Made by a program: the position numbers and the translations under genes. The notes beneath the pieces were generated by a model. That model was not told the DNA's origin. It made no database searches and worked only from the letters and a program-made list of their open reading frames with translations. 64,000 nucleotides of DNA. Source: Promethearchaeota archaeon (GTDB taxonomy: Archaea; Asgardarchaeota; Lokiarchaeia; Sigyniarchaeales; SOKP01). The stretch covers positions 59,632 through 123,631 of the forward strand of contig JAFGGO010000158.1 of NCBI GenBank assembly GCA_016930515.1. Direction: 5' to 3'. Numbering within the stretch: position 1 is the stretch's first letter; each line of letters starts with the position of its first letter. Of this stretch, positions 36,771 to 42,456 are shown one piece after another.

Positions 36771-37895
36771 ATGAGCTACAAAGACCTTTATTCTGAAGTG
36801 AAAAAGCGTAAGATGGAGGCACTGAACAAGAAAAATGTGGTTAAGGCAGTCGAAAAACACGGAAGAATTCTTGCCGTTGAGGGAAGGTTCGAGAAACCCA
36901 AACATGTCGTCAATAACATGTACGCTGCGGAAAAAACGATCATTAGCCCTGGCAAACTCGTGAAATATGACTTGGACTTGTACGATTTAGTGCTCATTGG
37001 ATGTCCTGGTGACCAAGTTTCTGAAAAATTACATCCGAGAATTAAAACATATGTAGAAAACGGCGGATGGTTGTTGTCAACGGACTGGTGCTTGGTAACC
37101 ATTGTCGAAAAGATATTTCCCGGATACATCCGGTGGAACCAGCAAAAAACCGCAGATTCCGTGGTAGCCTGCCAGATTGACGAGCCAAGTCACCCGTTTT
37201 TGGACGGCGTGACTCAAGAAATTCAGCGGTCTAAATGGTCCGCAAAAACCTCGAAGGACGTCCAGAGGAACGAGTTTAAGTGGTGGCTCGAAACAAAAAG
37301 CTACCCGGTTCAAATTATCGACCATCAAAAAGTGCGAGTCCTCATCTCCTCGAGGGATATTAAGTACAAGTGGGGCGAGGGCGCCGTGCTGTGCTATTTT
37401 GACTTCGGAACGAAAGGAGGGCGAGTGATCCATATCATCAGCCACACACACCTTCAAAAGGGGGGAGAAAAGGGAAAATACGCTTCCGCTTTGATCTTGA
37501 CAAACATGTTAGACGATAAAATTTCTCAAAAAATGGGCATTAGTCAAGAGCCACGAGTACCAATTTGGAATCAACCAACCCAAGCGTTTCAGGGAGTACC
37601 ACGTGAATCAGATGATTGGCTAAATCCCCCTTCTACGCAAGATAATTATTTCACGCCGAGCACTACGGAATTTCCTGGGAACGCAGAACTGACAGGAACC
37701 TCTCAAATAGTCGAACTTGAGAGATCGAATTTTTCTCTGGCTATCTCGTGTTCTTATTGTGGTTTTGATTTTACAAGCACCACTGGTAAAGTCTATAAGT
37801 GCCAAGAATGCGGCGCTCTGTACCACGAAGAATGCCTTAACCTGCAGATTAACGAAGGAGTCTGCAAGAGTTGCAACAGGATTCTTTTGTGGTAA
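36771..37895 (+). CDS. Class I glutamine-amidotransferase-like domain fused to a C-terminal C4HC3 RING/PHD-type zinc finger
   Basis: YDLVLIGCPG, IKTYVENGGWLLSTDW, HPFLDG, GGRVIH; tail CSYC..CQEC..HEEC..CKSC. Confidence 0.7.
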   Translation: MSYKDLYSEVKKRKMEALNKKNVVKAVEKHGRILAVEGRFEKPKHVVNNMYAAEKTIISPGKLVKYDLDLYDLVLIGCPGDQVSEKLHPRIKTYVENGGWLLSTDWCLVTIVEKIFPGYIRWNQQKTADSVVACQIDEPSHPFLDGVTQEIQRSKWSAKTSKDVQRNEFKWWLETKSYPVQIIDHQKVRVLISSRDIKYKWGEGAVLCYFDFGTKGGRVIHIISHTHLQKGGEKGKYASALILTNMLDDKISQKMGISQEPRVPIWNQPTQAFQGVPRESDDWLNPPSTQDNYFTPSTTEFPGNAELTGTSQIVELERSNFSLAISCSYCGFDFTSTTGKVYKCQECGALYHEECLNLQINEGVCKSCNRILLW

Positions 37896-38614: not shown

Positions 38615-41600
38615 TTATGGTTTGCTCTCAGAATGTGTGTTGATTTCTTCGAATTTTTTCCTGTTTAATTGGTAAAATTTTGTCTTGAAAATGGATATTA
38701 AGTCGAATTCATCGAGCTTGTCAAGGTATTTCTTGACCGTGTTGTAATGCATGCCTAGTTCTTGGGAAATTTCCGTGAGTTGACAGCCTTCGGTGTTCTC
38801 TTGTAAGTATTTAATTATTCTTTTGCATTTTTCTCGCGATATGATATGAAGTACTTCAGCGTTATCGAGCGTTCTATATTGGTCGTAATAAGCAACGAGA
38901 TTCCCCACCTTTTTCCCTCGAATGAATTGAAACCTTTCCAAAACGTTTAAATGCCACCTGACCACTGCACTACTCAAGCTTGTTTTTTTCAAAAGCTGGC
39001 TCAAGTGTATTCCCGGATTTTTTTGAATGCTACTAAATACAGTATATCTATTGGTGTTTTTTAAAATCTCATTTTTCGTCAATATAGATCCTTCGACAAC
39101 GATGTTCTTCTCGATGAGAGATCTCATTATTTTTTTAATTCCATTTTGATTAATGTTAATGGACGCCCGAGAAAAGCGAGAACTAAGGTAAGAAACAATG
39201 TTGGTAGGATCAAATTTCTTGTGTTTTTCCACATATTCTTGAATTAATTCTATCACAAACCCTTCGTAGACCAAGATGTCCTCAAATTCTTCTCGTTTTT
39301 TCCATCTTGACACGGGTGAGATCTCATTTCCGCTTATAATGTCGTTGATCATTTGCGTTCTTTCATTAGGTGAGAACGATAAGATCTCTCTGATGAAATC
39401 TTCCTTGACACTTCCTGAAAATCCGATATTATCCGTGATCTTAAGAAAGTCCTCTGAAACGATAGTTAAGGGGTGTTCTCCTGCTTGTGCAATGTCTTGC
39501 ATTGACACGTCTTCTTTAAATAGCTCTAATAACTTTTCCTTGTTACTGAGCTTGTTTAAAATTTCTTTCGAAGATTTGGTTGGATTTTTAAACTTGTTGA
39601 TTTTGTCTTTTGAAATTTTTTTCTTTCTTAGCTTTTTTAGTTTTCTTTGAGTTAATTTCCTTGCAAGCTTGGTTGCTTTTCTTAAGCTATATAAGACATA
39701 TCCAGAGGCGGTTCCTACTCCAGCAACTGTACCTACAGTTGTTAACACGATAATTAAATTCGTTAACGAATCGTCCTTTTCTTGAGGGGTGATGGAACTG
39801 ATCAGATTTTTCTCCAAGATTAAATCGAAAGTCCCAGTATTTCCAACAGTGTCATTAAACATAAAATGCACGATAACTGTGCCGTTTCCCATTTGATCCC
39901 AAATTTTCTGCTCTATATAGCCGTTCCACGCGCACTCAAGAGTGTGATGTGCGCCATTTGTTCCGTTGATGAGAAGATAACATATTGAATCAATCCCACT
40001 AGGATCTGTTATTACGATGGTAAAATTGTTCGTGTTTGGTGCAATGGTACTAAATATAATTCCCCTAGATGGATTATTCACTGTAATACTTGGGCTTATT
40101 ATATCTTTTCGAAGTATTATCTGAGCCATGACGATGTGTCCGTAAGAATTATTGATAAAAAACTGGATCTCGACCGTTCCATTTCCCATTTGATCCCAAA
40201 TGGCCTGCTCAACGAACCCCAACCAGGTGTAATTTGAAGTATGATGGGCGATATTGGTCGAGTTAATTAACATGTAAGTTATTGAATTTACGGTTGGATC
40301 AACCGTAACGATATCGATTTCTGGACCCGTTCTTCCAATAATTTGGTTATCTAATTGTGTATTAAAATAAAACTTGCATAACGGTAATTGATCATTTATG
40401 TTGCCTGTAACATAGGCCGTGCTTCCAATACCATCTCCTCGATCTGTTCCTTCATAATCATCCCAATAATTTCCAACTATTGAATTGTTCCAGAAGTTAT
40501 TTATATTATTATCTAAAGCGTGTAAAGTGTTGTTAACAAAGAAATTATTGAAAAAAAAATTATCGTTTCCATTTGAAATGTTCACGCCAATCAAGAGACT
40601 ATCTTGCACGATATTATATGATACCTGACTACTATTACACTTAGAAAGAATGAATCCATAAGAATTACTGTGAAAGACATTTTCGGAAACATTATTTCGA
40701 TTTCCTTGTTTGATTACTGTGCCATAATTAGTATAACTAATATTATTTCCAACAATTTCATTATCGGAGCAATTTTCCATTGTTATGGCATTTTGAGTTC
40801 TTATAATAGATGCCCCTTCCCAACTTATCAATAGATTAGTGCAATCTTTGTTTACACCATTTTCCAAGATGGAGTTATTGTTACTCCCAATGAGATTGAT
40901 GCTATTATTTGTTTCGTATATAGAATTCCCTACAATGGTGCTGTGATTGTTTCGATATAAGTTAATACCATTTATGTGACTACTGATATTGTTGTTTAAT
41001 ACTATATTATACTCGCTTTCCGTCAGATTTATCCCGTGAGTCCCGTTCAGAACAATATTCCCTGTTATATTGTTAAAATTACCTCTTACAAAAATTCCGT
41101 GGATAGTATTGTTAACCACTTTATTTCCTGAAACGGTGTTCTTATTACCATTTATATATATGCCCATTAAATTGTTATTAGAAACATTGTTTCCTGAAAC
41201 TAGTGTATCTTCACCATAGATATTTATGCCCTGTTTATTATCTGTTAAATTATTATTTATTATATTATTATTTTCGCTGTAAAAAACCCTTATACCGCTA
41301 GTATTGTAAATATGGTTATCTGAAATAATTGAATCGTTTAAATAATTAATATTAATAGATTCCGCAATGTAATTGGATAATGTATTTTTAGATATGATAT
41401 AGTTGCTTGAACAATATACATAAATTCCACTTTGAAGATAATCAGTTCCAACAATATTGTTTTTTGAAATGTTAATATCATTGCATTGAGACGTCCATAT
41501 ATTATATGAACTTTGAACATAATTGGTAAAACTATTATTGAACACGATGCAATTCGAAACATTATCCAGACGAAGTCCAAATTTAACGAAATTGTTAAAA

Positions 41601-41938
41601 ACGCAATTTTGGATTCTTACATAAGCGTCAGAATTATTTATTACGAGATTATCCTGAATGGAAGATGTAAAGGTGTGCCCTTCAATGATGTACGGCCACT
41701 CTTGAGTTCCATTTCCCGTGCAGATTCCTTGACTCTTGGCCCATTCCCAATTGATGGTACTTCCAGGAAGATCGTCGATAACGATGTTATTAAATGTTCC
41801 TGATTGTTTTGGTTTGATAAATTCAATTTCCGTCATATCATGTTTATTCTCCCCTAAAAGAGGAGAGAAAGCAACTAAAGACATTAAGATTATTGTGATA
41901 AACACTAATAGACGCAGTCCTTTTTTATTAGAATCCAA
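38615..41938 (-). CDS. Single-pass membrane protein: NosD/right-handed beta-helix plus 2 Ig-like repeats (outside), TM, helical linker and winged-helix DNA-binding domains (inside)
   Basis: Signal peptide; CTGNGTQEWPYIIEG; many xxGIxLxxSxxNxIxxN repeats; GNYWDDY..DGIG cap; TM LIIVLTTVGTVAGVGTASGYVLYSL plus basic cluster; NRYTVFSSIQKNPGIHLSQL..VRWHL..LE and LTEISQELGMHYNTVKKYLDKL; SD AGGAGG before the TTG. Confidence 0.88.
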   Translation of the reverse strand: MDSNKKGLRLLVFITIILMSLVAFSPLLGENKHDMTEIEFIKPKQSGTFNNIVIDDLPGSTINWEWAKSQGICTGNGTQEWPYIIEGHTFTSSIQDNLVINNSDAYVRIQNCVFNNFVKFGLRLDNVSNCIVFNNSFTNYVQSSYNIWTSQCNDINISKNNIVGTDYLQSGIYVYCSSNYIISKNTLSNYIAESININYLNDSIISDNHIYNTSGIRVFYSENNNIINNNLTDNKQGINIYGEDTLVSGNNVSNNNLMGIYINGNKNTVSGNKVVNNTIHGIFVRGNFNNITGNIVLNGTHGINLTESEYNIVLNNNISSHINGINLYRNNHSTIVGNSIYETNNSINLIGSNNNSILENGVNKDCTNLLISWEGASIIRTQNAITMENCSDNEIVGNNISYTNYGTVIKQGNRNNVSENVFHSNSYGFILSKCNSSQVSYNIVQDSLLIGVNISNGNDNFFFNNFFVNNTLHALDNNINNFWNNSIVGNYWDDYEGTDRGDGIGSTAYVTGNINDQLPLCKFYFNTQLDNQIIGRTGPEIDIVTVDPTVNSITYMLINSTNIAHHTSNYTWLGFVEQAIWDQMGNGTVEIQFFINNSYGHIVMAQIILRKDIISPSITVNNPSRGIIFSTIAPNTNNFTIVITDPSGIDSICYLLINGTNGAHHTLECAWNGYIEQKIWDQMGNGTVIVHFMFNDTVGNTGTFDLILEKNLISSITPQEKDDSLTNLIIVLTTVGTVAGVGTASGYVLYSLRKATKLARKLTQRKLKKLRKKKISKDKINKFKNPTKSSKEILNKLSNKEKLLELFKEDVSMQDIAQAGEHPLTIVSEDFLKITDNIGFSGSVKEDFIREILSFSPNERTQMINDIISGNEISPVSRWKKREEFEDILVYEGFVIELIQEYVEKHKKFDPTNIVSYLSSRFSRASININQNGIKKIMRSLIEKNIVVEGSILTKNEILKNTNRYTVFSSIQKNPGIHLSQLLKKTSLSSAVVRWHLNVLERFQFIRGKKVGNLVAYYDQYRTLDNAEVLHIISREKCKRIIKYLQENTEGCQLTEISQELGMHYNTVKKYLDKLDEFDLISIFKTKFYQLNRKKFEEINTHSESKP
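39885..40201 (-). repeat. Intragenic tandem duplication of a 99-aa Ig-like unit
   Basis: Identical 20-mer TTTCCCATTTGATCCCAAAT at 39885-39904 and 40182-40201 (297 nt apart); peptides YxLINxTNxAHHT..W.G..EQ.IWDQMGNGTV. Confidence 0.8.
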
Positions 41939-42456
41939 ATAGTTCGCCTCCTAGTCCCAAGTTATGAGTATTAAAAATGCTAATTTGAAAAAGTTTTTTA
42001 TCGCTCCTATTTGACTTGTTTATAATCTTTCCTTTATTATGATGTGTCATAATTTTGCTCTTTGTTTTTGTATAAAGGATAATTAATTAGATATTTAAGA
42101 GGATATAGCAGGATATTGAAAAACGAATTGCTTAATTTTATCGTATTATAGCGATTCTTCGCACGTTTTGATAAAATTTCTTCAATTTCAAATATCCAAC
42201 AAAATTGGTTCTTTTTTCTTGTTTAACTCTCCCTTAGATTCTTTAAATTTACTAATTTTAAGTTCTCTTAACATAAATGGAACTTATTTCAATAAATCTT
42301 TACAACTTAGAGTTACCATTATAGGTACTTGATAATCTTTATTTTATAGTCATCGAATCGTATTTATTTAAAAATTCACTTTCCGATACTACTATTAAGC
42401 AAGTAAACTGTATTAAAATAAGGATATTTGATAAGTAATGTTTTTTAATTGAAATC

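Follow-up and report, generated by a model that had tools for sequence, protein, structure and literature searches.

A cell-surface receptor fused to a putative triple winged-helix regulator in an Asgard archaeon, and its two-gene relatives

Introduction

Is a cell-surface receptor joined to a gene regulator within one polypeptide of an Asgard archaeon, and if so, how might the one govern the other? The question is raised by a gene of a Promethearchaeota archaeon (positions 38615-41938, minus strand) in a 64,000-nucleotide (nt) stretch of contig JAFGGO010000158.1 (positions 59,632 to 123,631, assembly GCA_016930515.1), hereafter the window. Eukaryotes have their closest known relatives in the Asgard archaea, whose means of sensing partner cells or the surroundings are little known. 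An initial annotation, made from the letters of the window alone, had read the gene as a single-pass receptor ending in a winged-helix transcription factor. It was found that the gene and its receptor-regulator fusion are genuine. Most relatives have the same parts as two adjacent genes, one for a receptor ending in an acidic module of about 85 amino acids (aa) and one for a soluble protein of three winged helices. The module, of no known family, is called SKEIL, a label coined here, and the winged-helix unit is called 3WH. On balance I favour the reading that the acidic SKEIL of the receptor holds and masks the basic winged-helix regulator, and that signalling at the head lifts this mask; sequences and structure models point to this with modest confidence.

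The fusion is genuine and old

The source genome (4.0 Mb, 190 contigs, 94% complete) has fused paralogs of full length on four contigs: C27 (the present gene), C45, C172, and C98. Fused homologs were also found in two independent assemblies, NCBI GCA_016839425.1 (with a 70% identical tail) and ENA ERZ27256988. Thus, the order of ectodomain, transmembrane (TM) helix, and winged helices recurs in Asgard genomes, and the gene is not the assembly chimera that the initial annotation had named as a danger. The four fused forms make up one clade among the 3WH domains of the genome, with tail identities of 51-59%, which indicates that the fusion is old. Across six fused proteins, column identity averages 66% in the tail versus 44% over the whole protein. 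Their heads vary in beta-helix length and in having PKD domains or repeats of 95 aa, and head domains have been exchanged between homologs.

An artefact, either a chimera or a read-through of two genes, might be suspected from the facts that relatives usually have two genes and that the paralog on contig C151 differs from the fusion by one in-frame TAA. Against this stand the four paralogs on separate contigs, the two other assemblies, and the single clade with its diverged tails, which make an artefact very improbable.

An acidic module followed by three winged helices

The tail behind the TM helix consists of the following parts.

39314..39583, minus strand: SKEIL, putative docking module, residues 786-875, acidic, isoelectric point (pI) 4.7; delimited by homolog conservation and the predicted complex
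39278..39313, minus strand: variable linker, residues 876-887, of low model confidence, with a predicted local distance difference test (pLDDT) value below 50; the C151 paralog has its stop codon here
39077..39277, minus strand: WH1, predicted degenerate winged helix, residues 888-954, with the wing I-V-V-E-G-S, at which SKEIL is chiefly predicted to dock; from the model, the predicted complex, and conservation
38882..39076, minus strand: WH2, ArsR/MarR-like winged helix-turn-helix (wHTH), residues 955-1019, pI 10.3; matched by HTH_24 and by PDB entry 5duk (1.5e-9), with structural matches to other proteins at Z about 11
38627..38860, minus strand: WH3, ArsR/IclR-like wHTH, residues 1027-1104; matched by HTH_IclR and by ArsR protein 6j05_B

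The region between the membrane and the winged helices had been taken for a helical linker. It turned out to be a conserved acidic domain instead, shared with other receptors and marked by the motifs SKEIL..L.NK, L-T-x-V-S..FL, and F..EML.LSP.ER. SKEIL has no Pfam or NCBIfam match, no solved (PDB) relative at E below 0.1, and no usable atlas match. It is present once or twice in single-pass receptors without winged helices (P0008-P0010, P0076, P0080, P0087, P0100). Some receptors have two tandem SKEIL modules and no winged helix, and P0104 lacks a TM helix and has a Cys/His-rich N-terminus instead.

A model of residues 886-1107, built from a 62-sequence alignment, has a mean pLDDT of 93 and a predicted template modelling score (pTM) of 0.78, and it consists of three winged-helix units. 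The initial annotation was right about transcription-factor-type wHTH folds and gave their number as at least two; the count in the model is three. An earlier model of the tail, built from an alignment of six sequences, was dropped (pLDDT 66, pTM 0.34, uninformative fold search). HTH_24 matches residues 967-1002 with 37.2 bits (cut-off 21.9), and HTH_IclR matches residues 1040-1077 with 24.6 bits (cut-off 22). WH3 aligns with ArsR 6j05_B over 85 aa (Z 14.2, root-mean-square deviation 2.4), and WH2 aligns with Rv0081, Phr, MecI, and MarR proteins at Z about 11. When the 3WH family profile was compared with the PDB, the matches were mainly wHTH transcription and chromatin proteins (best 5duk, 1.5e-9), including TFE, Sso10a, Lrs14, IclR, ArsR, and MarR, with a few Z-DNA- or dsRNA-binding winged helices. 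In the recognition helix of WH2 (residues 989-1003), W995, H996, and L1000 are invariant; in that of WH3, H1064, T1067, K1070, and Y1071 are conserved. The unit is basic (pI 9.4 overall, 10.3 for WH2), the opposite of the acidic SKEIL. By sequence and model, then, 3WH looks like a DNA-binding-type regulator. Kinship with ESCRT-II was considered as well; it has no support from the sequence profile and weak support from the fold: the Foldseek matches relevant to an ESCRT-II/Rpc34-type comparison were 6f40_P (5.8e-5, TM-score 0.27) and 3cuq_A (1.2e-3, TM-score 0.25).

Split cassettes in the same genome and in relatives

How are SKEIL and 3WH arranged elsewhere? In this genome, 16 of the 18 SKEIL matches are fused to or lie beside a 3WH gene. 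Four are the fused genes (C27, C45, C172, C98). Ten are followed by a 3WH gene of about 220 aa with gaps or overlaps of a few bases (C151, C47, C155, two on C173, C36, C174, C168, C186, C32), and two lie directly after a 3WH gene, in reverse order (C157, C26). Only two stand alone (C32, C157). Across seven related genomes there are 13 SKEIL matches, of which 10 are beside a 3WH gene, eight directly before it and two in the reverse order, and no fused form was found among 12 relatives sampled. Since SKEIL and 3WH are mostly adjacent separate genes and the fusion is absent from these 12, the fused gene is a derived variant of a two-gene cassette. The gene boundary of the split relatives coincides with the linker at residues 876-887. 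The two-gene arrangement in most relatives also points to binding, and masking, of the regulator by the receptor.

The C151 paralog (L015:1618-4365, minus strand) is a beta-helix receptor ending in SKEIL, with one in-frame TAA in the linker before its 3WH. It may have arisen by a recent split, represent a forerunner of the fusion, or be a candidate for read-through.

Besides beta-helices, the heads of the split receptors include an SBBP propeller and a Big_7 domain. A zinc finger of the type C-x-V-H-[KR]-G-P...C-P-x-C...Y-C-x2-C...C-W-x-C occurs in about 27 copies in the genome, mostly C-terminal in long proteins (e.g. G000 C45:26136-29270, C157:29209-31239), and six SKEIL receptors carry it. 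On contig C26, a 282-aa protein with two TM helices and a weak SKEIL match is encoded directly after a 3WH gene (L014:2269-3114; G000 C26:5768-6613, plus strand). It has a C-terminal ubiquitin-family domain (PF00240, 3.9e-6), and a link of the cassettes to ubiquitin-like tagging is possible.

An exhaustive search with the 3WH profile gave 98 clusters at E up to 1e-30, and the 92 full-length 3WH representatives were sorted by form. More than half (53/92) are soluble proteins of about 220 aa. Another 26 have one or two N-terminal TM helices with a short outer loop and no SKEIL, the membrane being separated from the winged helices by a linker of only about 20-30 residues. Nine combine 3WH with SKEIL and an N-terminal TM part (eight single-pass with a large head, one with six TM helices), and four, of 260-450 aa, have no predicted TM helix. 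Metagenomic proteins were also seen in which 3WH follows six TM helices, precedes six TM helices, or forms the N-terminus of soluble proteins of about 720 aa (P0031, P0099, P0133, P0134); it is therefore probably an output module that is reused widely. Strong matches over the full length occur only in the family of the source organism (25/25 genomes) and in its order (2/2), and the rest of the phylum has only generic two-wHTH matches near 1e-15. The relatives are named only as 'hypothetical protein' and come from metagenome-assembled genomes of Promethearchaeota and Hermodarchaeota, both Asgard archaea.

A predicted complex of SKEIL with 3WH

From the fusion and the conserved adjacency, binding between SKEIL and 3WH was predicted. 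The modelled complex of the two scored 0.80, and the best of three controls scored 0.01. Among solved complexes, 58 of 80 came up to this mark, and among mismatched pairs 2 of 110; these counts are rough since own alignments were used. Contact agreement among the runs was at least 86%, and partner pLDDT was at least 78. Recall of a like complex by sequence is excluded because no solved SKEIL relative was found. Thus, the modelling supports, short of proof, the binding of SKEIL to 3WH.

In the predicted complex, a conserved L-T-I-V strand of SKEIL (824-827) pairs with the likewise conserved WH1 wing I-V-V-E-G (946-950), and the invariant F848 of SKEIL contacts the invariant W995 of WH2. Residues 990-999, which form the exposed face of the recognition helix in WH2, are covered by SKEIL, and the WH3 recognition helix lies outside the interface. 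In the WH2 helix, the residues at contact positions 990, 991, 994, and 998 vary between paralogs, and W995, H996, and L1000 are fixed. Such a pattern would suit pair-specific recognition.

The head, the membrane helix, and the topology

The masking reading requires a head outside and winged helices inside. The relevant features are as follows.

41849..41938, minus strand: N-terminal signal peptide or signal anchor, residues 1-30, core 7-28; from hydropathy (2.64) and homologs
40379..41761, minus strand: NosD-type right-handed parallel beta-helix, residues about 60-520, rich in N and holding most sequons; from Pfam and the sequon test
39773..40321, minus strand: two tandem membrane-proximal repeats of about 95 aa, residues about 540-722; 51% identity, E 4e-25
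39689..39766, minus strand: single TM helix rich in small residues, residues 725-750; from hydropathy and the homolog alignment
39584..39688, minus strand: Lys/Arg cluster, residues 751-785, net charge +16, a positive-inside signal; from sequence composition

Hydropathy of the whole protein gives two segments, 7-28 and 725-750. The first is the signal peptide that had been noted at the start, be it cleaved or an anchor, and all five full-length homologs (5/5) have such a hydrophobic N-terminal segment. All 32 N-x-S/T sequons of the protein fall within residues 76-695, and shuffled ectodomains have 19.4 +/- 3.6, only 2 of 2000 shuffles reaching 32. The cytoplasmic tail has none versus 3.3 expected. 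The N-terminal anchor, the charge of +16 over the 35 residues after the TM helix, and the sequons, enriched in the head and absent from the tail, support a type I topology, with the ectodomain outside, one TM helix, and the winged helices inside. The sequon-rich beta-helix and the Lys/Arg cluster of the initial annotation thus both hold up.

The beta-helix is matched by Pfam NosD (8.1e-25, 87.9 bits) and Beta_helix (3.3e-22, 79.2 bits) over about residues 169-497. The full-length NosD family model TIGR04247 gives 66.4 bits against a cut-off of 300, and the likeness to NosD, which serves in nitrous oxide reductase maturation, is limited to the beta-helix repeat domain. As for the two repeats called Ig-like, their repetition is clear and they are present in other SKEIL receptors too. 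Their Ig-like nature is a lead only, from atlas matches to Big_13/Big_7 clusters at 0.88 and from the PKD domains that paralogs have at the same position.

The TM helix had been placed at about 39685-39757 and described as rich in Gly, Thr, Ala, and Ser. This composition agrees with the sequence, in which 11 of the 23 residues at 728-750 are G, A, S, or T. The helix has the pattern G736-x3-G-x-G-x3-G, and G736 and Y750 are invariant. Such a helix reads equally well as a packing motif of the GxxxG type and as the protease substrate for which it had been taken; a small-residue TM helix of the same type is also present in split receptors, where the regulator is encoded separately.

Proposed masking by SKEIL and its alternatives

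How would the parts work together? The protein would be a type I surface receptor, predicted to be N-glycosylated, whose tail carries SKEIL and then a rigid 3WH of the ArsR/MarR transcription-factor type. The gene would be the fused version of a cassette composed of a variable receptor ending in SKEIL and an adjacent, soluble 3WH protein of about 220 aa. SKEIL is predicted to bind by strand addition to the wing of WH1 and to cover the recognition helix of WH2, and the receptor may keep the regulator membrane-bound and masked. An event at the ectodomain would loosen the grip and let 3WH engage DNA. In a split cassette the regulator would be released, and in the fused protein it may lose its mask while still at the membrane or be cleaved off within the exposed linker. 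If masking is true, it offers a simple, testable route from the Asgard cell surface to gene control, and the SKEIL-3WH pair could be used to find targets and ligands.

Several observations weigh against this reading. The complex score is the model's own confidence for two domains of one polypeptide, and it does not distinguish a mask from permanent packing. SKEIL masking cannot be the only mode of control, because about 26 of the 92 representative 3WH proteins are anchored in the membrane without SKEIL. Several recognition-helix residues are near-invariant across the 62 family members, which is unusual for paralogous specific transcription factors and could reflect a common protein or nucleic-acid partner. 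The whole-unit Foldseek search also returned tandem winged helices that are not repressors, namely Rpc34, TFIIIC, SelB, and ESCRT-II, albeit with weak scores (TM-score at most 0.30, E at least 5.8e-5). In the sequences upstream of the four fused genes, the shared words amounted to AT-rich 8-9-mers that hardly exceeded shuffles, and no operator candidate was obtained.

The anchored 3WH proteins and the free recognition helix of WH3 would suit a permanently tethered regulator of the ToxR/CadC kind, in which SKEIL serves structurally, as an adaptor and not a mask, WH3 does most of the DNA binding at the membrane, and the ectodomain controls oligomerisation. The GxxxG-like TM pattern, suited to helix packing, would fit as well. 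The fusion is evidently tolerated, being kept in four paralogs and in other assemblies, and membrane-bound regulators are common in archaea (PMC10269533). Yet the regulator is a separate soluble protein in most cassettes, which suggests reversible binding, and the predicted interface covers the WH2 recognition helix; permanent tethering is rather unlikely. Regulated proteolysis after the manner of Notch, SREBP, or RseA, where a signal leads to a cut in the tail or the TM helix that frees the winged-helix fragment from the membrane, is unlikely too. It could draw on the helix-destabilising small residues of the TM helix, on the one site-2 protease (M50) of the genome, and on the linker at 876-887, which is variable, of low model confidence, and thus accessible to proteases. 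However, the small-residue TM helix also occurs in split receptors without a covalent regulator and so is not specific to release, the genome, 94% complete, gave no rhomboid, and no protease gene linked to the cassettes was seen. The docking evidence for SKEIL lends no specific support to intramembrane cleavage.

Might 3WH not act in transcription at all? It could be an adaptor that binds protein or RNA in the style of Rpc34, ESCRT-II, or SelB and connects surface proteins with machinery of the cytoplasm, for example RNA polymerase or that of sorting or ubiquitin-like tagging. The best whole-unit Foldseek matches (Rpc34, TFIIIC, and SelB, with ESCRT-II listed) and the near-invariant key residues of the recognition helices would agree with this, and some SKEIL receptors carry a RING-like zinc finger and one a ubiquitin-like domain. 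Those fold matches are weak, though, and domain by domain the unit is strongly matched by ArsR/MarR repressors (Z 11-14). The profile matches are mostly DNA-binding wHTH proteins, with no ESCRT-II, Rpc34, or SelB sequence match at E up to 1, and the unit is basic. An adaptor outside transcription is quite unlikely. Masking by SKEIL thus remains the favoured reading, and the fused and split forms, side by side in one genome, are a natural experiment on whether the regulator needs to leave the membrane.

Comparison with known systems

Is the architecture novel? The suggestion of novelty in the initial annotation was too broad. Proteins with a TM segment and a cytoplasmic DNA-binding domain in one chain, the transmembrane transcription regulators (TTRs), are widespread in archaea, at about four per genome; the census of Demey et al. 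(2023) does not mention Asgard archaea (PMC10269533). By the definition of that census, the present protein would be a TTR, since it has a predicted TM part (725-750 and the N-terminal anchor) as well as a domain predicted to bind DNA (HTH_24 and HTH_IclR above cut-off; ArsR-like fold, Z 14.2). Like ToxR, TcpP, and CadC, it combines an outside sensor, a TM helix, and a cytoplasmic domain of DNA-binding type. ToxR and CadC, however, are type II proteins with an N-terminal OmpR-type domain; here the topology is type I and the binding unit is C-terminal, with no Trans_reg_C match at E up to 1. A further difference is that a triple ArsR/MarR-like unit follows a dedicated docking module, in a system that mostly consists of two genes. 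The general kind is thus known (Demey 2023, PMC10269533), and what looks novel is the SKEIL-3WH make-up with its fused and split forms. Literature searches gave no description of SKEIL, of a rigid triple winged helix, of fused/split equivalence, or of an expansion to about 16 cassettes per genome, and no account of HVO_0163-type proteins in this role.

As proposed, the cassette would follow the logic of TTRs and of membrane anti-sigma/sigma pairs, with different components. In such pairs, a small domain on the cytoplasmic side keeps hold of the transcription protein of a neighbouring gene and masks it. The RsgI/SigI systems of Clostridium thermocellum have many cassettes per genome, exchangeable heads of carbohydrate-binding type, and a single TM helix. 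In the present system, the binding domain is C-terminal to the TM helix (the reverse orientation), fused forms exist, and there is no sigma factor or anti-sigma domain; the sigma-70 models stayed below cut-off (Sigma70_r4_2 with 13.4 bits against 25.7, TIGR02937 with 15.9 bits against 42.9). BlaR1/BlaI and MecR1/MecI are also pairs of a membrane sensor gene and a neighbouring winged-helix repressor gene, in which the signal travels from the outer domain to the repressor, and MecI is a structural match of WH2. BlaR1, however, acts via a cytoplasmic zinc protease domain, and Pfam gave no protease domain in the present protein.

The folds of WH2 and WH3 are like those of ArsR/SmtB and MarR proteins (Z 11-14), down to the recognition-helix signature S/x-H-L..L. 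Those proteins are homodimers, in contrast to the three units in one chain here, where no metal site is evident; the ArsR models stayed below cut-off (HTH_5 with 11.7 bits against 22, NF033788 with 30.9 bits against 55). Notch, SREBP, and ATF6 share with the fused protein the principle of a membrane-bound precursor with a cytoplasmic transcription regulator, without any relationship in sequence or domains. Unlike in those cases, release is not required in an archaeal cell, because there is no nuclear envelope.

The genome has about 16 receptor-regulator cassettes, to be compared with 18 receiver-domain matches. The arrangement looks like a lineage-specific wiring of the cell surface to gene control, with exchangeable sensor heads of a putatively glycan-binding type. 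The SKEIL/3WH pair may even make up a so far undescribed signalling system, private to a single Asgard family and its order, in which each of more than 15 surface receptors per genome, with exchangeable heads, holds a dedicated 3WH through a new docking domain that masks the recognition helix. Taken as a whole, this is a real possibility, somewhat short of an even one. If it is true, the fused gene would show that the regulator can work, or be processed, while it is covalently tied to the membrane.

The start codon and the neighbouring genes

Where does the gene begin? The following two features bear on this.

38615..41938, minus strand: whole gene, 1107 codons and a stop, with a TTG start; from the uninterrupted frame and the fused homologs
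41947..41951, minus strand: GGAGG, a ribosome-binding-like motif 8 nt 5' of the TTG; read from the sequence

The single uninterrupted open reading frame of 1107 aa is as first described. Its TTG is the sole start candidate that precedes the hydrophobic N-terminus, and it was taken as the start because of the GGAGG located 8 nt upstream and the hydrophobic N-termini of the homologs. The public gene call (P0002, 1073 aa) begins at an internal ATG, M35, and thereby loses the N-terminal segment (window 41836-41938).

The neighbouring genes, for an aldo-keto reductase, a zinc-finger protein, and a beta-propeller protein, offer no functional link to the receptor gene. The tail-to-tail neighbour (window 36771-37895, plus strand) has a looser variant of the recurrent C-x-V-H-[KR]-G-P zinc finger, with weak Pfam C1_1 and Rubicon-homology matches. 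In ERZ27256988, the fused homolog (P0007) lies between genes for glycoside hydrolases of families GH3 and GH31, directly after a 3WH-type gene of 312 aa. This hints that some cassettes control glycan use.

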